Origin: an uncultured Candidatus Sumerlaeota bacterium
GTDB lineage: Bacteria; Sumerlaeota; Sumerlaeia; UBA8349
Direction of reading: 5' to 3'
Assembly: GCA_942493245.1 (NCBI GenBank)
Contig: OW818685.1
Location: 3,452,389-3,516,388, forward strand
DNA: 64,000 bases
Both the position numbers and the translations under genes were made by a program. The notes beneath the pieces are model-generated. The model worked only from the letters and a program-made list of their open reading frames with translations, made no database searches and was not told the origin of the DNA. This document shows, piece by piece, positions 2,210 to 30,387 of the stretch. Each line of letters begins with the position of its first letter. Within the stretch, counting starts at the first letter, position 1.

Positions 2210-3793
2210 TCACCACCCGAACGTCACCAGACTCCGTCCGGGTAAAGTGTATTGAAAAAACTTGTCACCGGTCTGTACCTGGAACACCTTCTCCGCTTCG
2301 TTCCGATTGAACACGGCGAGGGTGGTCTTCCCCTCCGGCGCGGCGAAGGCCACCACATCCAGATCCTTATTCGGACCGTCCCCTTCGACAGAAGCGGCCA
2401 CGCGGCGCGAACCGGGCTGCGCCGCGCGGGACATTTGGGCCATTCCGTAGAACTCGCGCTCGAATTTGACCTCCTGCCAGGTGTCCGACCGGACCGTCAC
2501 CACCCCGATCCCGGCCGAATCGTCGCGCAGGGTCGGACCGTACTTCTGGTCGAGCGCCAGATTCCACTCCTGGATCGCCTGACACCCGTTCTGCGGCCCA
2601 CCCATCCAGCTCATCGCCATGCGCGAGCGCACATTGCCCCACCAGCCGCCGCGTTTCTTTCCCCACGCCGAGATTTCGGTGCAGATGATCATCTTGTCGG
2701 GGAATTTCTGATGGATCGCCTGATAGGCCTTCTTCATCGCCTCGGCGCCGCCGGAGTAACAGTGCCACGCGCTCCCGGCGATATAGCGCCCCGCCTCGGG
2801 GTCCTGGAAAATCTGCGTCACGCTGGCCACCGGGTCCATCTTGGCGTCGCCACCGAGTACCTTGCGGTCGCCGGGGTGCAGTTCCCAGTTGTGGTCGTGG
2901 ACAAAGATTTTCGTCTTGAGCCCCTTGGCCGCGAGTTTCGGCCCGAGCAGTCGGACCAAGCGGATCTGGTCCGCCTCGTCCAGGCGCATGCAGGGGTAGC
3001 GCAACAGGTCCGTCTGCGGTTCGTTCTGGAGCGTGACGGCCCAGATTTCCACCCCGGCGGCCTGGTACTGTTCGATGAACTTCACGAAATAGTCGGCGTA
3101 CACCTCGAAGCACTCGGGCTTGAGTTTGTTGACACCCCCGGCGGCTTTTTCCGCCTCGGTGATCCCCACCAGTTTCCCGTGGGTCTTCATCCAGGCGGGC
3201 GCGCTCCACGGAGACCCCATGATGCGAATGGTCGGGTTCAACTTCAACGCGTCCTTCAACGCCGGAATGATCTGTTTCCGGTCGTGGTCGATCGAGAACT
3301 TGCTCAGATCGGGGGACGGTTCATCGCAATAGGTGTAGTACGCCGGAGCGGCGGTGAAGTCCGACGCTCCCATCGGAATGCGGATGAAGCTGAACCCCGC
3401 GCCCTCGGTGGGAGAGAACAACCGCTTCATCGTGTACTCGTAGAGCGTCGGATTCTTCTCCTTCAGGTTCATGAACAGGTCCGCAGAGGCGTCGGTCATC
3501 GCCGCGCCGTAACCGAACATTTCCTGTTCCGCCGCGTTGCGGTTCACCGAGATTTTCAGAGGAACTCCCGGGTCCGCCGGAAGGAGCGGCGTGGAACCGG
3601 CACGCAACAAGGTGTATTCGTCATCCTGATGGACGTCGTACTTGCCCGCGCCGCCCCCGATCCTGGCCTCCTTCGCGTCGCCATCCGGGAAACGCGTGAG
3701 CAACGTCGCCACCTCCGCGCTCCACGCGGGCACCAGGAACATTCCCACTAAAAGGCACAAAAAACTCATCCGTTGAATCGAACGCATCGCCAC
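2210..3793 (-). CDS. glycoside hydrolase family 30 (glucosylceramidase-like), secreted
   Basis: 527 aa with an N-terminal signal peptide (MSFLCLLVGMFLVPAWSA) and GH30-like stretches including ..IMGSPWSAPAWMK.. and ..VTLQNEP... Confidence 0.8.
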   Translation of the reverse strand: MAMRSIQRMSFLCLLVGMFLVPAWSAEVATLLTRFPDGDAKEARIGGGAGKYDVHQDDEYTLLRAGSTPLLPADPGVPLKISVNRNAAEQEMFGYGAAMTDASADLFMNLKEKNPTLYEYTMKRLFSPTEGAGFSFIRIPMGASDFTAAPAYYTYCDEPSPDLSKFSIDHDRKQIIPALKDALKLNPTIRIMGSPWSAPAWMKTHGKLVGITEAEKAAGGVNKLKPECFEVYADYFVKFIEQYQAAGVEIWAVTLQNEPQTDLLRYPCMRLDEADQIRLVRLLGPKLAAKGLKTKIFVHDHNWELHPGDRKVLGGDAKMDPVASVTQIFQDPEAGRYIAGSAWHCYSGGAEAMKKAYQAIHQKFPDKMIICTEISAWGKKRGGWWGNVRSRMAMSWMGGPQNGCQAIQEWNLALDQKYGPTLRDDSAGIGVVTVRSDTWQEVKFEREFYGMAQMSRAAQPGSRRVAASVEGDGPNKDLDVVAFAAPEGKTTLAVFNRNEAEKVFQVQTGDKFFQYTLPGRSLVTFGW

Positions 3794-3815
3794 ACGCTCC
3801 TTTCCGGTTCATCTT

Positions 3816-5975
3816 CTATTTCCCCGTCTTAAACTCGATCCCCAACTGGCTGAAGATGAAGGCGTACTCGTCCACGGCCATGTCGATCCGCGCCGCGAGC
3901 GGCGAACCCATGCCGTGGCCGGTGTCATTGCTCGTGCGAAGCAGAATGGGCGCTTTCGATGACGTGGCCGCCTGCATCCGGGCCGTCATTTTGCGCGACT
4001 GCATCGGCTGGACGCGCGGGTCGTTGGCCCCGGTCATGAACAACGTCGCCGGATAGGGCGTGCCCTCCTTCACATGGTGGTAGGGCGAATACGCGTACAG
4101 GGCGTCAAACTGAGCCTTGTCCTTCACCGTCCCGTACTCGGGGATGTTGAAACTGCCATTGGGGGACAGTTCCACTCGCAGCATGTCGTAAATCCCCACA
4201 CTCGACACCACCACCCGCATCGCGCCGGGGTGCTGCGTGAGCATCGCGCCCATCAGGAGCCCGCCGTTGCTGCCTCCCTCGATGGCCAACCGGTCAGCTG
4301 AGGTGTAACCTTCTTTCACCAGAAACTGCATCGCGGCGGCAAAATCGTCGAACACGTTCTGCTTGTTCGTCAGGTTTCCCTGTTTGTGCCACTCCTCGCC
4401 ATACTCGCCGCCGCCGCGTATGTTGGCCTGCGCGAAAATAATCCCCTGGTCCAACAGAACCCGCCGCATGGAGGAAAACTTCGGCTCCATGCTCGTTCCG
4501 AACCCACCGTAACCCGTCAGGAAACAGGGATTCTTTCCGTCCAACCGGGCGCCCTTCGGCAGCACGATATTGACCGGGATTTTCGTCCCATCCTTGGACA
4601 CCGCAAACTCGCGCCGCACTTCGGCGTCGCTCAAGTCCACCGGCGTCGTGCTCCCCAGGGCGGTCTTCACGGTCTTATTGGTCTTGCCATCGAATCGGTA
4701 GAACGTGTTGGGCGTCGTGTAGGAGACGGCGGAGAACGCCACCTCGTCGCCTCCGAGGGGAGCCAGCCCCCCCAGCGAGGCCACGGCCGGTTGCTCCGGC
4801 GCCTGGAGCGGCTTACCATCGAGGTCGAACACGCGAATCTGCGAGGGTCCACCCAACTGATAAACCACAAAGAGGCGCGACGCAGTCACGACCAGCGTCG
4901 GCGGATCGTTGTAGAAACTCGTCAGAATAGTGTCCTGAGATTCGGGGACAATCGTCTTCGCCTCGCTGAGTTTCCCGTCGCGTACCGGCATTCGAAGAAT
5001 CTTGCCCCTGGGGGCGCCCTGCACGGAAATCAGGAACAATGTCCCCTCGGGACCAAACGTCGCCTGGACTGCCTTGTCCTCGAATCGGCTGATCTGCCGC
5101 CACTCGCCCTCGGGCGACCGAAGGTAGAACGCGAACTCGCCGCCGTCGCCATTCTGAACCGTCGCCAGCAGGTAGCCGGTCTGGGGGTTCATCTCGACTT
5201 CGATCTCGCCAATGCGCGGCAGGTCGCGCCCCATCTCATAGCGATCCTGCTCGGCGGGCGTGCCGAACTTATGAAAATACAACTGCATGTAGAAATCCAT
5301 ATCCTCGGGCTTGCGCTCGGTTCCCCGGGGGTACCGGGTGAAGAACAGCCCCTGTCCATCCGCCGCGAAGGCCACATCGCCCCCGGCGGTCCCGCCATTC
5401 ACGCGCGGGATCACCTCATGGACCTGCGTCCCCGTGGCGGTGTCGAAAATCCAGATGTCCCCGCTTTCCGTCCCCTTTTTAGAAAGGGAGACCGCCACCA
5501 ACTTCCCGTCGTGCGACGGGACGTACCAGTCGATCGTCGTGGAACCCGAGGGATCGAGGACGTTGGGGTCCACCAGCGCGCGCTCGGCGCCCGAGGCGTC
5601 CAGAGCCGTCCGGGCCACGAGGAAGGCCTGTTGTTTCGGCGGCTCGCTCTTGACGGCCAGAAACACCCCGCCCCGGTGCGACACGTCGCCGTATCCCACC
5701 GTTTTGGCCGACATGATCTCCGTGATGCGCTTGCGGATGGCCTCGACGTTCGGCAGATTGTCGAGCGCCGACCGGGCGTGGGCGTTCTGCGCCTCGCTCC
5801 AGGCGCGCACCTCGGTATTTTCCCAATCCTCCAGCCAACGGTAATCGTCCGCCACCGCCACGCCGTGATACGTGTCCGTCACCGGTTTTTTCGCGGTTTC
5901 GGGCGCCGCGGCGCTCCCCCACCCCGCCACGGCCAGCCACCCCATCGTCAAAAACACTCCCATCTTCCGTCCCAT
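3816..5975 (-). CDS. prolyl oligopeptidase (peptidase S9A family), secreted
   Basis: 719 aa with signal peptide, N-terminal beta-propeller region and a C-terminal alpha/beta hydrolase domain carrying the serine-nucleophile motif GGSNGGLL. The stop lies 22 bp upstream of the GH30 start, so the two are probably co-transcribed. Confidence 0.85.
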   Translation of the reverse strand: MGRKMGVFLTMGWLAVAGWGSAAAPETAKKPVTDTYHGVAVADDYRWLEDWENTEVRAWSEAQNAHARSALDNLPNVEAIRKRITEIMSAKTVGYGDVSHRGGVFLAVKSEPPKQQAFLVARTALDASGAERALVDPNVLDPSGSTTIDWYVPSHDGKLVAVSLSKKGTESGDIWIFDTATGTQVHEVIPRVNGGTAGGDVAFAADGQGLFFTRYPRGTERKPEDMDFYMQLYFHKFGTPAEQDRYEMGRDLPRIGEIEVEMNPQTGYLLATVQNGDGGEFAFYLRSPEGEWRQISRFEDKAVQATFGPEGTLFLISVQGAPRGKILRMPVRDGKLSEAKTIVPESQDTILTSFYNDPPTLVVTASRLFVVYQLGGPSQIRVFDLDGKPLQAPEQPAVASLGGLAPLGGDEVAFSAVSYTTPNTFYRFDGKTNKTVKTALGSTTPVDLSDAEVRREFAVSKDGTKIPVNIVLPKGARLDGKNPCFLTGYGGFGTSMEPKFSSMRRVLLDQGIIFAQANIRGGGEYGEEWHKQGNLTNKQNVFDDFAAAMQFLVKEGYTSADRLAIEGGSNGGLLMGAMLTQHPGAMRVVVSSVGIYDMLRVELSPNGSFNIPEYGTVKDKAQFDALYAYSPYHHVKEGTPYPATLFMTGANDPRVQPMQSRKMTARMQAATSSKAPILLRTSNDTGHGMGSPLAARIDMAVDEYAFIFSQLGIEFKTGK

Positions 5976-11232: not shown

Positions 11233-11606
11233 AGCCGGGGGTAACAGCGCCTATTTTCATGAATTCGGGGGAAGGATGCGACCCGGCGGCGGGCGTGATC
11301 CTTCAGGTTTCTGTCGCCCCTCCGGGGCTTGATCTTATTTTTTCGTTCTGTTCCGGGGGTTCCCTTCGGTCACCCCCGGCTGGCTTACAAGCCTGCGAAG
11401 CACCTGACCTTCGCCCCCTCCGGGGGCTGAAAACCTGATAATTTGATCTCTTCCAATCCTTCAAACGTGAAGATGAAGAATCAAGGGCGGCGCGCTTGGG
11501 GTCAATAAAGCCTTGGCTTGCGGGGCGAAGGTGACTACAATGCCCCCTTGTGCGCTTGGAAAAGCCGCATGGGTTCAGTCCTCTTCACGTTGCAGACAGC
11601 AGCCTC

Positions 11607-12239
11607 ATGCCCCCCATGCTTTCCTCCGTTGATCTCACCCTTCTGATTCCCGGTATCCTGCTTTGCCTGATGGGCTGGACGCTCTACTGGATCAGCCTGA
11701 ACCTGACCGGCGGCCTCACAGGCTGCGTGGCTGGCGTGGCTGCCGTTTATCTGGCGGCGGGACTCCTGAAAGTAGATCCCAACACCATGGTCTGGCTGGT
11801 TCCCCTGGGCGGCGTGTGTGGCTTAGCCCTGGGGATTTTCTTCATGCGGGGCCTCCACCGTTTTCTCTTCTTCTTTGCCGGTTCCGCCCTGGGGCTGGCC
11901 GTCGGGGACCAAGCCTTCGGGTGGGCCACGCTCCATATCGAATCCGCCCAACTCAACCCCCTCCTCTGGCGGGCGGGGTGCGCAATTCTCTGTTCGCTGG
12001 CGGGCGGGATCATCCTCCTGTGGGGGTCGCGCTGGCTGGTCACGCTGGCCACTGCCGTTGCGGGTTCGCTTCTGATCGTCCTGTCCGTGAACGATCCGTT
12101 GTTTCTACTCGCGCTCGCTCCCCTGATTCCCACCTCTTTCCTTTTTCAGATGGGGGTGCTCCGCCGCCTCCTGCCCGACCCGGCGCGGCGAACCGAAATT
12201 GAAGAAGAATACGAAGAATATCCCGAAAACCGCCGTTGA
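11607..12239 (+). CDS. hypothetical integral membrane protein
   Basis: Multiple hydrophobic helices and an acidic C-terminal tail. Start chosen at the first in-frame ATG (11607); the ORF is open from a GTG at 11550. Confidence 0.5.
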   Translation: MPPMLSSVDLTLLIPGILLCLMGWTLYWISLNLTGGLTGCVAGVAAVYLAAGLLKVDPNTMVWLVPLGGVCGLALGIFFMRGLHRFLFFFAGSALGLAVGDQAFGWATLHIESAQLNPLLWRAGCAILCSLAGGIILLWGSRWLVTLATAVAGSLLIVLSVNDPLFLLALAPLIPTSFLFQMGVLRRLLPDPARRTEIEEEYEEYPENRR

Positions 12240-12449
12240 GCGCCAACGGCGCGATCTTTACCAGCCTGGGGCATCACCCAACGAAAACCGACTTGTTTAT
12301 TTCAGTAAGGGCTGAGAGCCACGTTCTGTTCAGCCGTTTAGCCCCTTTTCATAGTTCGGGCCTTCAGCCCTTATAAAGAAGGGACATCTAACCTGGGGCG
12401 ACGCTGCGCTTGCCCCAGGCTGGTATCAATCCGCGCCGTTGGCGCTCAA
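12236..12449. repeat. MITE-like element or long structured hairpin bounded by about 37-bp near-perfect inverted repeats
   Basis: TTGAGCGCCAACGGCGCGATCTTTACCAGCCTGGGGC at 12236-12272 and its reverse complement GCCCCAGGCTGGTATCAATCCGCGCCGTTGGCGCTCAA at 12412-12449 (about 35 of 37 matching), with further nested palindromes inside. The left arm overlaps the stop codon of the upstream gene. Confidence 0.5.
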
Positions 12450-12480
12450 CTGCGGTTTTTATAGACCGTGTTCTTCCGGA

Positions 12481-12530
12481 TCAAAAAGAGAGGACGGGGC
12501 CTCACAATCGAGACCCCGTCCCCGTTTTTT
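12481..12530. terminator. bidirectional rho-independent terminator between convergent genes
   Basis: TCAAAAAGAGAG-GACGGGGC...GACCCCGTC-CCCGTTTTTT: a GC stem flanked by an A-run upstream and a T-run downstream, so it reads as a terminator on both strands (membrane protein on + and glnA on -). Confidence 0.55.
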
Positions 12531-12579: not shown

Positions 12580-14781
12580 TCAATAGATCCAGAGCAGTTC
12601 GCGGTACTTCGGCATCGGCCACAACGCATCGTCCACGTACTGTTCGAGTTCGTCGGCGGCGCTACGGCACTCGGACATCAACGGCAGAACCGAGTTGCGG
12701 TACATTTTGGCCTTTTCGAGCGGCGTGCCTTTCGATTCGTCGGCGCGCGTGCGGATATCGTCGAGAGCCTTGAGGTTGCGCTTGAGGGCCGAGACGTTGC
12801 GCGTCAACACGTCCAGAAGCGACTTCTGCGCCGAGACATCCACGTCTTCGCCCATCGCCGCGCGCAACGAAAGAACCGAGTCGGCCACCTGTTTCTGGTA
12901 GTCGAGCGCAACGGGCAGGATCAGCGTACGGCCGATGCTCGCGGTCAACTGCGCTTCGATGGAAATCGTCGTCGAATAGCTTTCGAGCAGGATTTCCTGA
13001 CGCGAGTACACCTCGCGCTCGCTCAACACCTTGTTGCGCGTGAAGATCTCGACGATCTCCTTGTCGGTAAAACGCTCAAGGGCATCCACGGCGTTGCGCA
13101 GGTTGGGCAGACCGCGCTTGCCCGCTTCGATCGTCCACTCGGCGCTGTAGTTGTCGCCATTGAAGATGATCGGCTTGTGCTCGGTGAAATACTTCGCGAG
13201 CAGTTTCTGGATCACGCTGTTCAGATCGCTGCCCTTCTTGTCGAGTTCCTTCTCGAAGTCGGTGGCGATCTCATCGAGCGCCGCCGCTACTGCCGTATTG
13301 ATGGCGATATTGGCCGGCGCAACCGTCTGGCTGGAACCCACCGCGCGGAACTCGAACCGGTTGCCCGTGAACGCGAACGGCGACGTGCGGTTGCGGTCCG
13401 AGGCATCCTTGGGCAGCGGGGGCAACGTCGTCACGCCCACCTTCAGAACGCCACCCTTCACGCCCTTGAATTTCTTTCCCGAAACGATGGACTCGACCAC
13501 TTCGGCCAGCAGATCGCCCAGATAGACCGACAGAATGGCGGGCGGCGCTTCGTGCGCGCCCAGACGGTGATCGTTGGCCGCCGAAGCCACCGAAATCCGG
13601 ATAGCCGTGCCGTATTTGTGAACCGCGCGCAACACGGCGGCCAGGAAGACCAGGAACTGGGCGTTGTCCTGCGGGGTTTCACCCGGATCGAGCAGGTTGT
13701 TGCCTTCCGAGTCGCACATGGACCAGTTGTTGTGTTTGCCACTGCCATTCACACCCTTGAAGGGTTTTTCGTGCAGGAGGCAGACCAGCCCGTGCTCTTC
13801 GGCCGTGGCACGCAGGGTTTCCATGACCAGCATGTTGTGGTCGCACCCCACGTTGGCCGCTTCGAAAACCGGCGCGATTTCAAACTGCGCGGGCGCCACT
13901 TCGTTGTGACGCGTCTTGACCGGAATGCCCAGTTGGAACAGTTTATACTCGGCGTCGGCCATGAAAGCCAGCACACGGCTGCGGATCGCGCCGAAATAGT
14001 GGTCGCTCATCTCCTGGCCCTTGGGAGGCTTGGAACCATAAAGCGTGCGGCCGGCATTGATCAGGTCGGGACGCTGCAAGAAGAGGCGTTTGTCCACGAG
14101 AAAGTATTCCTGCTCGGGACCCACCGTGGTGTTGACGAAGGCCGAGTTCCTGTTGAAAAGCCGCAGGATGCGCATGGCCTGAGTGGACAGCGCCTCGATG
14201 GAACGCAGAAGCGGCGTCTTGCGGTCGAGCGCTTCGCCCGTGTAGGAACAGAAAGCCGTCGGGATGCAAAGCGTGCGGCCATTGGGGCTTTCCAGAATGA
14301 ACGCGGGCGACGTGGGATCCCACGCCGTATAACCGCGCGCCTCGAACGTGGCGCGAATGCCGCCCGAGGGGAAGGACGAGGCGTCCGGTTCACCCTGGAT
14401 CAGCATCTTGCCCGAAAATTCCGTGATGATGTGGCCATCGGAAGTCGGCGTAATGAAAGAGTCGTGTTTCTCGGCCGTCAGGCCAGTCATGGGCTGGAAC
14501 CAGTGCGTGTAGTGCGTGGCGCCCAGTTCGAGCGCCCAGTCTTTCATGGCGTTGGCGATCGCGTCGGCCATGGTCAGATCCAACGGTTTACGCTCGCGGA
14601 TGGACTGCAGGAACGCTCTGTAGATGGGCTTCGGAAGCCTTTCGCGCAGGGCGCGTTCCCCAAAAACAAACCGCCCGTAGATTTCCGAGAGCGGTTTCTT
14701 CATGTAATCAATATCCACCTTGACCGGCTGGGTGTTGGCAATCTGATCAATCGCCTCTTTCCTGTAATTGACCTTACTCAT
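12580..14781 (-). CDS. glnA: glutamine synthetase, type III
   Basis: About 733 aa from the ATG at 14781, which is preceded by a GGAGGAG ribosome-binding site. The length and N-terminal region (MSKVNYRKEAIDQIANT...) are characteristic of GSIII. Confidence 0.85.
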   Translation of the reverse strand: MSKVNYRKEAIDQIANTQPVKVDIDYMKKPLSEIYGRFVFGERALRERLPKPIYRAFLQSIRERKPLDLTMADAIANAMKDWALELGATHYTHWFQPMTGLTAEKHDSFITPTSDGHIITEFSGKMLIQGEPDASSFPSGGIRATFEARGYTAWDPTSPAFILESPNGRTLCIPTAFCSYTGEALDRKTPLLRSIEALSTQAMRILRLFNRNSAFVNTTVGPEQEYFLVDKRLFLQRPDLINAGRTLYGSKPPKGQEMSDHYFGAIRSRVLAFMADAEYKLFQLGIPVKTRHNEVAPAQFEIAPVFEAANVGCDHNMLVMETLRATAEEHGLVCLLHEKPFKGVNGSGKHNNWSMCDSEGNNLLDPGETPQDNAQFLVFLAAVLRAVHKYGTAIRISVASAANDHRLGAHEAPPAILSVYLGDLLAEVVESIVSGKKFKGVKGGVLKVGVTTLPPLPKDASDRNRTSPFAFTGNRFEFRAVGSSQTVAPANIAINTAVAAALDEIATDFEKELDKKGSDLNSVIQKLLAKYFTEHKPIIFNGDNYSAEWTIEAGKRGLPNLRNAVDALERFTDKEIVEIFTRNKVLSEREVYSRQEILLESYSTTISIEAQLTASIGRTLILPVALDYQKQVADSVLSLRAAMGEDVDVSAQKSLLDVLTRNVSALKRNLKALDDIRTRADESKGTPLEKAKMYRNSVLPLMSECRSAADELEQYVDDALWPMPKYRELLWIY

Positions 14782-15631
14782 CTGGTTTTCTCCTCCCTGA
14801 TTTCTCTTGAGCCTTGCCCGATGAAAGCTCGAAGACCTTGATGGCGAACCTCTCACCATTCTTTCGACCGACAGGAACCGGGAAACCCTTCACAAAGTTC
14901 CAGACGGTTTGACACGACCGATTGCTTTCTTGTTACTTGAACTTACTCCCCGCCCACCCAACACTCAATTAAAATACAACAACGCACCCTTTCCTCCGCG
15001 ATTCCCGTTCAAAGGCGTTTGGGTTCACCCCCACCAAACTACCCAGCGCTTCGTGCCCCCACACTTGCGGGGGGGAAATCGTGTGGAGACACGAAGCGTG
15101 GCGTCATGGCCTGGTCCCAGTTCCAGTCCATGAGAGATCCGCAGAAGACCGTCCTTCCTCAACCCGTTCTATTGATCCATCCAAGGCTGCATCCGATCAC
15201 AGCCAGACCTTCCATCTTCAACACCCATTTCCCTAGCAATTGAGATGCCAGAGAGAGTATCTGGAAGCGAATGACTGATATTCAATGTCTTACAATCGAA
15301 TCTAAGCGATATGGACAAAACCAGAACCTACACGCCGGTAGGAGTCTGGCAAAACGCCCTACAAAAATGTAGGAGTAGAGGTGAAACTTTTACCACCCAA
15401 CAGCCCAACGAAGAAGGGGATTTCGAATGGGTCCCATTTTTGAGTCCCTGCCGGAACGCAAACCGAAAGGCGTTTCCGCCCCGGATCATAAAGATTCTTT
15501 GGGATAACGGCTATAGGGCTTATGGACAAATCCCTCTCGGGCCAAAAGAAAAACGCGGCGACACGCGCCTCTGCGCCTGCCACCGCGTTGGGATCCTTTG
15601 GGCCAGAATCCCCGGCCACAGCCTCTTTTGC

Positions 15632-28387: not shown

Positions 28388-30387
28388 CTGGTGGCGCAGC
28401 GAAGCCGCAACCCATAAAACCGCGAAAGGCGCGAAAAACGCGAAATTCGGCTTTCCCGTTTTTCCGTACTACATCTCGCAGAACCAACGCAAACCACGAT
28501 GATCTCATGAACAGAAAGAATGGAATGTGTAAACCCCTTAACGCAAAGACGCCAAGACGCAAGGACGCAGAGGGTTCCGGATGGCGAGGACGGCGCGATT
28601 CAAAACTCGAACCGAAAATAGGGATGGAATGTGCGGACGACAAAAACTGAAAATCCATGAACCTAAAAACCGCAGTTGACTCTTGCTCTCGTTCTGCAAG
28701 TGTAGCAAACTGAGTGCATGAACGAGAAAAATCTCTTCCCAACCCCTCACCCATTGGGTGACTCCAATGCGCCCGAGATCGAATCTCTGGTGGTGGACAC
28801 TTTTGGCGGCCGGGTCCACGTGGAGTGGGCGCCCCAGGCGGCCGTGACGCCTCTGGGGCAATTGCCGTTCTTCATCGAGTTCCTCAAGACGGCCCATCTT
28901 TTTGATGCCTGGGTTCAGGATTGCCCGCTGGAGTACCACAGCCCCAATGCCCCGGCCAAGCGCGACATTCTGGGGACGACTCTGCTGTGTCTGCTGGCGG
29001 GTCACACGCGCTACGCTCACATCGCGGCGATTCGGGCCGATGGGGTGAATCCGGAATTGCTCGGCATGTCGAAGGTGGCCAGCGAGGACTCGGTGCGCCG
29101 GGCGTTTCAGGCCGTGGATGGGGAGGAGTGCGCGCTCTGGCAAACCCATCACTTGCGGCGCTGTTACGAGGCTTTGTTGTGCGAGCCGTGGATTCTGGAT
29201 CTCGACACGACCGTCAAGCCGCTCTACGGCCGTCAGGAAGGGGCCGTGAAGGGCTACAACCCGCAGAAACCGGGCCGTCCCTCGCACACGTACCACACCT
29301 ACTTTCTGGCCAACCTGCGCCTGGTGCTCGACGTCGAGGTGCAGTCGGGCAACCGGACGGCGGCGAAGTACACGAGCCCCTCGTTCTTCTCCTTTCTCGA
29401 CACCCTGTCCCCCGAACAGCGGCCGGTCTTCGTGCGCGGCGACTGTGCCTTCGGCAACGACGCGGTCATGCGCGAGTGCGAGAAACGGGGACAGCCTTAC
29501 TTGTTCAAGTTGCGCCAGACTCAGAAAGTACGGGGGCTGATCGAGAAACTCTTTGCCCGCGAGGTGTGGGAGGACGCGGGCCAGGGCTGGGAGGGCGTGG
29601 AGTCGAAGTTACGCCTGAGCGGCTGGGAGCGCGAGCGCAAGGCCGTCGTCCTGCGTCGGCGCCTGAAAGGCGATCTGCTTTTGGCCAACCGCCCACAACC
29701 AGGACAGTTGGAACTGGCTTTTGTCGAGACACTCGAGACGGTGGGCCCGTACGAGTACGCCGTACTGGTGACGGACCTCGCGGGCGAAATCCTCACGTTG
29801 GCGCAGCACTACCGGGACCGGGCGGACTGCGAGAACGTCTTCGATGAGTTGAAGAACCAGTGGGGCTGGGGCGGGTTCACGAGTCGGGACCAGAAACGCT
29901 GCCAGATCATGGCGCGCCACACGGCTCTGGTCTACAACTGGTGGTCGCTGTTCGCGCGCCTGGCCCTGCCCGACAAACACCACGAGGCGCAGACCAGCCG
30001 CCCGCTTCTTCTGCACGCCGTGGGCAAGCAGACGCAACACGCCGGTCAGACCACGCTGACCCTGACGAGCCTGCATGCCGAGTCGGCCTCCATCCGCAAA
30101 GTTTTGCGCGGTTTGACGGGCTTTTTCCAGCACCTTCGCAAGGCTGCGGAGCAGTTGGATTGGACTGAGCGCTGGCGGCTGATTCTGAGTCGCGCCTTCG
30201 TCGTCTTTCTGAAAGGAAGACTCCTCGGCGTACCGGGAAAACCCGCCCTCGGATGCACTTGAGCGACAAACACCGGCGCCCAAGGCCCTTGGGCAGGGTT
30301 CAACTGCTGTTTTTAGGATGAATCTTTGCATCTCTGCACCTTTGCGACTTTGCGTTAAAATTGGTTGCGGCTTTGCTGCGCCAGGAA
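28388..30387 (+). mobile_element. insertion sequence, IS1380/IS4-like, with long imperfect terminal inverted repeats
   Basis: Single DDE transposase ORF flanked by CCTGGTGGCGCAGCGAAGCCGCAACC... (28388 onward) and its reverse complement ...GGTTGCGGCTTTGCTGCGCCAGG (ending about 30387). A second IR-like copy TTAACGCAAAGACGC sits at about 28538, and the inner segment CCTAAAAACCGCAGTTGAC (28662) matches the reverse complement of 30300-30320. The left end is about 200 bp longer than the right. Confidence 0.75.
28718..30262 (+). CDS. DDE transposase (IS1380/IS4-like)
   Basis: 514 aa; ..KGYNPQKPGRPSHTYHTYF.., ..VFVRGDCAFGNDAVM.., and C-terminal ..YRDRADCENVFDELKNQWGWGGF.. (Y-R-E-K signature region). 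Confidence 0.8.
   Translation: MNEKNLFPTPHPLGDSNAPEIESLVVDTFGGRVHVEWAPQAAVTPLGQLPFFIEFLKTAHLFDAWVQDCPLEYHSPNAPAKRDILGTTLLCLLAGHTRYAHIAAIRADGVNPELLGMSKVASEDSVRRAFQAVDGEECALWQTHHLRRCYEALLCEPWILDLDTTVKPLYGRQEGAVKGYNPQKPGRPSHTYHTYFLANLRLVLDVEVQSGNRTAAKYTSPSFFSFLDTLSPEQRPVFVRGDCAFGNDAVMRECEKRGQPYLFKLRQTQKVRGLIEKLFAREVWEDAGQGWEGVESKLRLSGWERERKAVVLRRRLKGDLLLANRPQPGQLELAFVETLETVGPYEYAVLVTDLAGEILTLAQHYRDRADCENVFDELKNQWGWGGFTSRDQKRCQIMARHTALVYNWWSLFARLALPDKHHEAQTSRPLLLHAVGKQTQHAGQTTLTLTSLHAESASIRKVLRGLTGFFQHLRKAAEQLDWTERWRLILSRAFVVFLKGRLLGVPGKPALGCT

Follow-up and report, generated by a model that had tools for sequence, protein, structure and literature searches.

A decaying hairpin element in a Sumerlaeota genome probably joins IS1380-type ends to a REPIN-like core

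Introduction

Between two convergent genes of an uncultured Candidatus Sumerlaeota bacterium lies a long, nearly perfect palindrome that neither gene explains. It is part of a stretch of 64,000 nucleotides (nt) of contig OW818685.1 (positions 3,452,389 to 3,516,388 of the forward strand), which was analyzed at its full length and is called the window below. A preliminary description, made from the letters alone, reported a 214-bp element with 37-bp inverted repeats and offered two options: a miniature inverted-repeat transposable element (MITE) or a highly structured RNA, either a small RNA (sRNA) or a 3' untranslated region (UTR). What, then, is this element, and how did it come to lie at the end of a gene? 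We put the probability at about 0.8 that the segment at 12222-12464 is an old, decaying MITE in which terminal repeats of the type found in the IS1380 family of insertion sequences (ISs) enclose a doublet resembling a REPIN, that is, a pair of repetitive extragenic palindromes (REPs) forming a hairpin.

Results and Discussion

The hairpin has the ends of a nearby insertion sequence

The element measures 243 bp and is thus larger than first noted. An inverted-repeat search resolved its symmetry into a long outer arm pair, a second, perfectly complementary pair, and an inner pair (Table 1); the first two together span 12226-12273 and 12411-12459, and an alignment of the whole arms matches in 45 of 54 columns. 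For 12236-12272 against 12412-12449, where about 35 matches in 37 positions had been reported, we counted 34 matches in 38 aligned columns, the other four being 3 mismatches and 1 indel. The nested palindromes that had been noticed in the interior are likewise present, as the inner pair and as a hairpin within the right arm at 12392-12419. Folding confirmed that the structure is very stable on both strands as RNA (-126 kcal/mol for the plus strand and -132 kcal/mol for the minus strand, z about -10.5 against shuffled controls) and also as DNA (-74 kcal/mol, z -12.4); none of the shuffles was as stable as the native sequence. The element has no open reading frame (ORF) of its own and contains just the final 18 nt of the reading frame of the neighboring gene.

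Searching the window with the outer end of the element revealed a second pair of such ends, 1.6 kb apart and 16 kb from the hairpin, which bound an apparently intact IS. When up to two mismatches were allowed, AAAACCGCAGTTGA had four matches in the window, exactly at the ends of the element and of the IS, against 0.44 expected. The IS reads ATGAA, then CCTAAAAACCGCAGTTGA ... TCAACTGCTGTTTTTAGG, then ATGAA, and it encodes a DDE-type transposase that scores 82 bits with Pfam PF13701 (DDE_Tnp_1_4), above the cut-off, and whose plasmid homologues (23-25% identity) are annotated as IS1380 family. In the ISfinder classification, IS1380-family members generate target duplications of 4-5 bp and have ends starting with CC; the window IS has a 5-bp duplication, and its ends begin CCTAAAAACC. 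The IS itself lies within an imperfect inverted repeat of 35 nt (28538-28572 and 30324-30358, 77% complementary), which may be another palindromic repeat used as a target.

Table 1. Coordinates of the hairpin element, its candidate partner, and the surrounding features in the window, with units from other loci that pass the Acido-Lenti-1 model
Feature	Position	Strand	Basis or remark
Whole putative non-autonomous element (MITE)	12222-12464		IS1380-type ends; homology of 12239-12459 to 18 full-length copies in a metagenome-assembled genome (MAG)
Left terminal inverted repeat, CCCGAAAACCGCCGTTGA	12222-12239	+	Matches IS ends, CCTAAAAACCGCAGTTGA
Right terminal inverted repeat, reverse complement CTATAAAAACCGCAGTTGA	12446-12464	-	1-nt indel at tip relative to IS
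Longest arms	12226-12253 / 12432-12459		28 nt, 96% complementary
Second arm pair	12259-12273 / 12411-12425		15 nt, 100% complementary
Inner inverted pair	12306-12320 / 12359-12373		Inverted-repeat search
Left three-hairpin unit, decayed	12236-12320	+	nhmmer with hidden Markov model (HMM) of the unit, E 5e-11
Left unit, H1	12240-12252		GCGCC-AAC-GGCGC
Left unit, H2 (5' half)	12265-12272		3/8 positions of 3' half mutated
Left unit, H3	12309-12321		One pair lost
Right three-hairpin unit, intact	12350-12449	-	nhmmer with unit HMM, E 8.7e-17
Right unit, H1'	12433-12445
Right unit, H2'	12392-12419		CCTGGGGC..GCCCCAGG, with 12-nt loop insert
Right unit, H3'	12358-12370
Left gene, TM7S3/TM198-like membrane protein	11550-12239	+
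Six codons (YPENRR, 12219-12236) and stop (TGA, 12237-12239) added to membrane protein	12219-12239	+	Orthologues lacking the element end ...EEYEE, then stop
Bidirectional terminator hairpin	12483-12530		Separate from element
Right gene, type III glutamine synthetase	12580-14859	-
Candidate autonomous partner, probable IS1380-family IS, apparently intact	28662-30317	+	18-bp inverted ends, 514-aa ORF
IS transposase ORF	28718-30262	+	514 aa, DDE type
IS target duplication, ATGAA	28657-28661 / 30318-30322		5 bp
Units passing RF01687	L124 1026-1070; L100 656-700; L122 2003-2047; L143 2003-2047; L117 1408-1452		37.9-49.7 bits

Relatives of the element are dispersed and bear traces of transposition

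A 19-mer of the arm, GTTGAGCGCCAACGGCGCG, was scanned exactly against one genome per species and matched at least 86 stretches; among the matches listed, about 35 lay on different contigs of a single MAG, Candidatus Sumerlaeota bacterium AMR_MDS_1306 (DAOPYU01). By blastn and nhmmer, this MAG holds at least 18 full-length copies, 78-90% identical to positions 12239-12459 of the window and set in unrelated flanks. It also has many half copies, and several of these lie where a contig ends. The refuting outcome named in the preliminary description, no further copies and no conservation, is thus not what the sequences show. Most copies in the MAG are about 340 nt long and consist of an outer left end, CCTGAAAACCGCAGTT, a non-coding leader of about 110 nt, and a conserved core of 220 nt. 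In the window copy, which has no leader, the outer end directly joins the core, and this is why the copy resembles one perfect hairpin.

When all loci are considered, 5-bp direct repeats surround 7 of the roughly 13 elements that have IS1380-type ends (CTGAA, TTGAA twice, ATGAA three times, and TTCAA); when the left flank of one copy was paired with the right flank of another as a control, such repeats appeared in 2.2% of the pairs. An empty site could be recognized as well: the hairpin CCCACCGTTGAAACGGTGGG is intact in two loci (L009 and L089) and is split by the element in a third (L034), with TTGAA on both sides. One further element with the same ends, 273 bp long (L050 6686-6958) and flanked by the duplication ATGAA, has an interior unrelated to the core of the others, so the IS1380-type ends carry at least two kinds of cargo. 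Read as traces in sequence, the shared ends, the duplications, and the empty site are the marks that cut-and-paste mobilization by a DDE transposase would be expected to leave.

The core is an inverted pair of three-hairpin units that accompany Y1 transposase genes

Matches in other phyla show that the 220-nt core is composed of two inverted copies of a unit of about 95 nt. Each unit has three hairpins: H1, in which a TT(G/C)A foot precedes GCGCC-AAC-GGCGC; H2, with the form CCTGGGGC-loop-GCCCCAGG; and H3, GGGC-TGAAA-GCCC. Both window units were recovered with an HMM of the unit, the left one with damage to H2 and H3 (Table 1).

The unit led to a transposase gene of a second kind. A locus from a Verrucomicrobiae MAG (L048) has one unit directly upstream of an ORF with a Pfam Y1_Tnp domain; the single units in two other loci (L020 and L076) adjoin ordinary genes, and only L048 gave a lead to Y1 proteins. 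A tblastn search with its protein found four further Y1 genes, each adjoining a unit, so that the association holds in all five genome loci. One of these, in the Sumerlaeota MAG (L040), is a full arrangement, in which a unit at 3600-3703 is followed by a 150-aa Y1 gene at 3703-4155 and by an inverted unit at 4160-4264; the right unit of the window aligns with the right-hand unit of this locus. A Y1 gene with inverted units on its flanks is likewise present at L081, the arrangement spanning 4155-4792.

Scanning metagenome contigs with an alignment of the Y1 proteins yielded 80 additional loci (L093-L172), in which positions were counted wherever enough flank was available. A unit precedes the start codon by 0-11 nt in 48 of 75 loci, an inverted unit begins 5-10 nt after the stop codon in 54 of 76, and units occur on both sides in 39 of 71. 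Many Y1 loci also contain gene-less inverted doublets of 180-250 nt, which have the layout of the window core without the IS1380-type ends, and some have tandem partial units. Six partial units of about 55 nt follow one Y1 gene on its 3' side (L096 1729-2057), and four stand upstream of another (L109 1123-1396). In an Acidobacteriota MAG, H1 is repeated in seven tandem copies of 20 nt (L029 476-612).

The Y1 proteins contain the motifs DH[VI]H, WQ, and YIxxQxxHH and thus have a Y---Q--HH signature. They match the NCBIfam IS200/IS605 model at 64-67 bits (cut-off, 55); against the model for RayT, the REP-associated tyrosine transposase (RAYT), the score is 23.7, with 80 required.

Pairing within the units is conserved without a preferred strand

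An alignment of 82 distinct units was examined for covariation. In the three hairpins, 97.9% of the cells are paired, and 10 of the 17 pairs have changes on both sides (65 cells). None of 500 shuffles reached any of these measures, and sliding the 3' partner by 1-3 columns reduced pairing to 22-47%. Among 1,394 cells, G-U (16 cells) is as rare as A-C (13 cells), which the opposite strand would read as G-U. There is thus no preferred RNA strand, and the counts do not allow a strand to be assigned; the units are under a pairing constraint of the kind expected for DNA hairpins.

The element was inserted at the end of a membrane protein gene

The flanking genes are convergent, as had been stated, and the left arm overlaps the stop codon of the membrane protein gene; this TGA forms the inner end of the left terminal repeat. 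Homologues of the membrane protein led to four orthologous loci with both genes. One of them, L087, whose protein is 92% identical, carries the same element at the same position; the element is absent from the orthologous locus in L089 (88%) and L091 (84%). In the two loci without it, the protein ends six residues earlier than the window protein, which implies that the element supplied the window gene with its last six codons and its stop. Together with the dispersed relatives, the ends in common with an IS1380-family element, and the 5-bp duplications in the family, the presence/absence polymorphism bears out the first of the two options originally offered, a MITE. The terminator hairpin between the element and the glutamine synthetase gene is kept in all four orthologous loci, and the element is therefore not the terminator of that gene.

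The terminal repeat CCTGAAAACCGCAGTTGA has stop codons in two of three frames, and in L050 an 809-aa ORF with no Pfam match reads into an element through the terminal repeat at 2519-2536 and ends at the inner TGA, as the membrane protein gene does in the window.

The ends of the window copy and of its counterpart in L087 depart from the consensus by two or three substitutions and a 1-nt indel, and neither copy has a recognizable target duplication. We read the window copy as old and probably immobile. The right junction could have arisen from TTTTTAGG followed by ATGAG through two small deletions, a possibility that we do not claim.

Several observations weigh against a MITE moved by an IS1380-type enzyme. 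The sequences next to the window copy (AATAT on the left and ACCGT on the right) contain no recognizable target duplication at any plausible boundary, and the orthologous copy in L087 also lacks one; for this reason, we infer from the relatives that a DDE transposase moved it, and an influence of the hairpin on the transcript of the host gene would likewise be an inference. The window locus offers no precise empty site, because the spacers in L089 and L091, about 700 nt long, are filled with unrelated repeats. The window IS transposase scores 148.8 bits against NCBIfam NF033539 (IS1380), below the curated threshold of 180, which is still its best match (E 1.7e-43). A tblastn search of 92 loci, among them the MAG loci with many copies of the element, found no copy of this transposase. 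Finally, the element occurs once within the 64-kb window, where the arm sequences have no further match, the dispersed copies being known from the related MAG, and the window has no Y1 gene.

A different intergenic repeat, about 300 nt long, is common to the orthologous locus of a relative (L089 ~4020-4290) and the Sumerlaeota MAG (L009 ~740-1080); it holds CCCACCGTTGAAACGGTGGG.

Relation to known mobile elements

In many respects, the element resembles MITEs that stem from DDE insertion sequences or are mobilized by them, such as Correia, RUP, and Nezha-type elements. It is small and non-coding and folds into a long hairpin, copies of it are dispersed in a related MAG, its terminal repeats match those of a nearby IS, its family includes 5-bp duplications, and it is fused to the end of a gene as are some known MITEs. 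It differs from them in that only the 18-bp ends correspond to the IS; the interior does not derive from it by deletion and is a module of another transposition system, the Y1 (HUH) type. Furthermore, the window copy has lost its duplication or never had one.

The core invites comparison with REPs and REPINs and their RAYT (TnpA-REP) genes, with which they form the REPtron (Bertels & Rainey 2011, PMC3116915; Quentin et al. 2018, PMC6006769). The shared features are palindromic units in inverted orientation around a single Y1 gene, clusters of units near this gene, and dispersed gene-less inverted doublets that can form hairpins. However, the unit is about 95 nt long with three hairpins, whereas a REP is one palindrome of 20-40 nt, and its foot is TT(G/C)A (consensus TTnA before GCGCC) rather than the GT[AG]G of REPs (PMC6006769). 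The Y1 proteins are neither class 2 TnpA-REP, which have a Y---NP motif, nor NCBIfam RayT. Their Y---Q--HH motif is the signature of subclass 1.2, which is listed without REPs and without typical IS200 ends (Quentin et al. 2018, PMC6006769). By analogy, then, the core would work like a REPIN, although we do not class it as a canonical one. Elements of the IS200/IS605 group and their non-autonomous derivatives, the palindrome-associated transposable elements, also have subterminal hairpins beside a small Y1 gene, and no target duplication is expected of them; the two IS200/IS605 ends, however, are not inverted repeats of each other, whereas here both flanks are inverted copies of one unit of about 95 nt.

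Alternative explanations

The strongest competitor dispenses with the DDE enzyme: the element could be a plain REPIN, copied as a doublet by an IS200-like Y1 transposase via a single-stranded DNA hairpin, with the IS1380-like outer 13-18 bp being irrelevant. The core does resemble the gene-less doublets beside Y1 genes in other lineages, the missing duplication at the window copy is what HUH/Y1 transposition would give, and hairpins that covary without a G-U strand bias fit recognition as DNA. We nevertheless consider this explanation unlikely. The outer ends are present on all full-length Sumerlaeota copies and absent from the doublets of other lineages, 5-bp duplications occur with these ends far above chance and are not made by Y1 enzymes, and the element with the same ends and an unrelated interior has also duplicated its target. 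In addition, a Y1 gene is lacking in the window.

Less probable still is that the element is a functional structured RNA, either an sRNA of the Acido-Lenti-1 type or a 3' UTR stabilizer or terminator for the transcript of the membrane protein or glutamine synthetase gene. Its fold is extremely stable on both strands, it occupies the space between convergent genes with a terminator shortly after it, and its arms are distantly related to an Rfam family typed as sRNA. Acido-Lenti-1 (RF01687) was described as a candidate sRNA that is present in multiple copies, has no known function, and is sometimes found near group II introns, with sequences of Lentisphaera araneosa and Koribacter versatilis in its seed; no link to transposases was made (Weinberg et al. 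2010, PMC2864571). Its two-hairpin architecture and linker, CCUxGxxC..GxxCxAGGCU..UAU..CG-GCC-loop-GGC-CU, correspond to H2 and H1 of our unit on the opposite strand, and it too is multi-copy and often tandem. The Rfam model, by comparison, spans 46 nt and is classified among sRNA genes, whereas the unit is about 95 nt long, includes one more hairpin, and is associated with Y1 genes.

A scan of the whole window with Rfam at gathering thresholds found no family. The arms show a weak similarity to Acido-Lenti-1, and they fall short of its threshold of 37, with 16.3 bits on the minus strand (12239-12270) and 8.3 bits on the plus strand (12414-12446). These low scores reflect the broken H2 of the left unit and the 12-nt loop insert in H2 of the right one. 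A copy in the MAG (L080) reaches 35.2 bits in Rfam E-value mode, also below 37, in a match that, on the opposite strand, runs from H2 across the linker to H1. Among the units in Y1-gene loci, five do pass the model (Table 1); four of them directly flank the Y1 gene, and the fifth, in L100, belongs to a doublet about 800 nt upstream. In the published seed of RF01687, the fourth pair of helix 1 is A-C in many sequences and would thus be G-U if the opposite strand were read. It is open to doubt which strand the Acido-Lenti-1 "sRNA" belongs to and whether it is an RNA at all.

For the window element, the evidence against a functional RNA is broader. Two related genomes lack the element at this locus, its many copies have unrelated neighbors, two of the three hairpins in its left unit have lost pairs, G-U pairs are not enriched on either strand of the units, and the true terminator is the separate hairpin conserved in all four orthologues. 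Of the structured-RNA option in the preliminary description, the distant relationship of the arms to Acido-Lenti-1 stands; the absence of a G-U strand bias and the position of the motif beside Y1 genes point to DNA hairpins rather than an sRNA. The element may still have a side effect on mRNA stability.

That the structure is a chance palindrome or a local duplication-inversion, without family or mobility, might be suggested by its single copy in the window; the fold z scores of -10 to -12 speak against it, and dozens of homologous copies elsewhere refute it.

A proposed history of the element

The favored explanation, an old MITE with IS1380-type ends around a REPIN-like doublet, can be put as a sequence of events. 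A DDE transposase acting in trans would bind the 18-bp ends, excise the element, and insert it at a new target resembling NTGAA, of which 5 bp would be duplicated. The cargo does not stem from the IS; it is an inverted pair of the unit of about 95 nt, with its three short G+C-rich hairpins, which in several phyla flanks a 150-aa IS200-like Y1 (HUH) gene in the arrangement known from REPs, REPINs, and RAYTs. The element would thus be a chimera in which IS1380-type ends surround a REPIN-like doublet. One copy presumably inserted at the 3' end of the membrane protein gene before the lineages of the window and of L087 split, replaced the stop codon, added six codons, and has been inherited since. 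It would now constitute a very stable hairpin in the 3' UTR, upstream of the shared terminator.

This account explains the odd hairpin of the window as transposon debris, from which the membrane protein would have obtained its last six residues and stop codon. The window element itself is ordinary and probably inert, and the interest lies in its chimeric build and in the link to Acido-Lenti-1 and Y1 genes. A wider proposal has two parts, namely, that the unit of about 95 nt, including Acido-Lenti-1, is the REP equivalent of the widespread Y---Q--HH subclass of IS200-like Y1 proteins and that the Sumerlaeota doublet acquired IS1380-type ends; for both to be true together, we see the odds as evenly balanced. 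If they are, then Acido-Lenti-1 would be a DNA-level recognition module for a transposase, and the Y1 genes would represent a new type of REPtron across many phyla. RF01687, which has lacked a function since 2010, would gain a concrete genomic identity, and a Y1 subclass reported to be without REPs would have cognate repeats that are long and contain three hairpins. One non-coding element could then be moved by two unrelated transposition systems, DDE and HUH/Y1. Such a natural case of a REPIN-like sequence between DDE-type inverted repeats would bear on the origin of non-autonomous elements and on how they swap mobilization systems.

Other candidates and minor observations

Other identities were considered and rejected. 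The CRISPR repeat model CRISPR-DR9 gave only 16.8 bits, with 45 required, and the element consists of two inverted copies with no array. An integron attC site was discarded because the element reads GTTGAGC ... GCTCAAC on both strands, the reverse of RYYYAAC ... GTTRRRY; single units carry an attC-like box at one end only. Conserved upstream sequence in one subfamily had prompted the idea of a guide-RNA scaffold for a TnpB, IscB, or IS110-type enzyme or of a retron RNA. This was ruled out by the upstream ORFs of that subfamily, which are housekeeping genes or have no family match, and by the extra sequence being the non-coding leader of about 110 nt inside the element. A full-text literature search for the arm sequence returned no paper.

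Copies of the unit also occur at contig ends in MAGs labeled as Spirochaetales (L013), Sphaerochaetaceae (L002, L015, and L035), and Bifidobacteriaceae (L081). Over 63 nt, the L013 copy shares 97% identity with the arm in the window. Such copies in MAGs with foreign labels suggest either mis-binned contigs or recent horizontal transfer.

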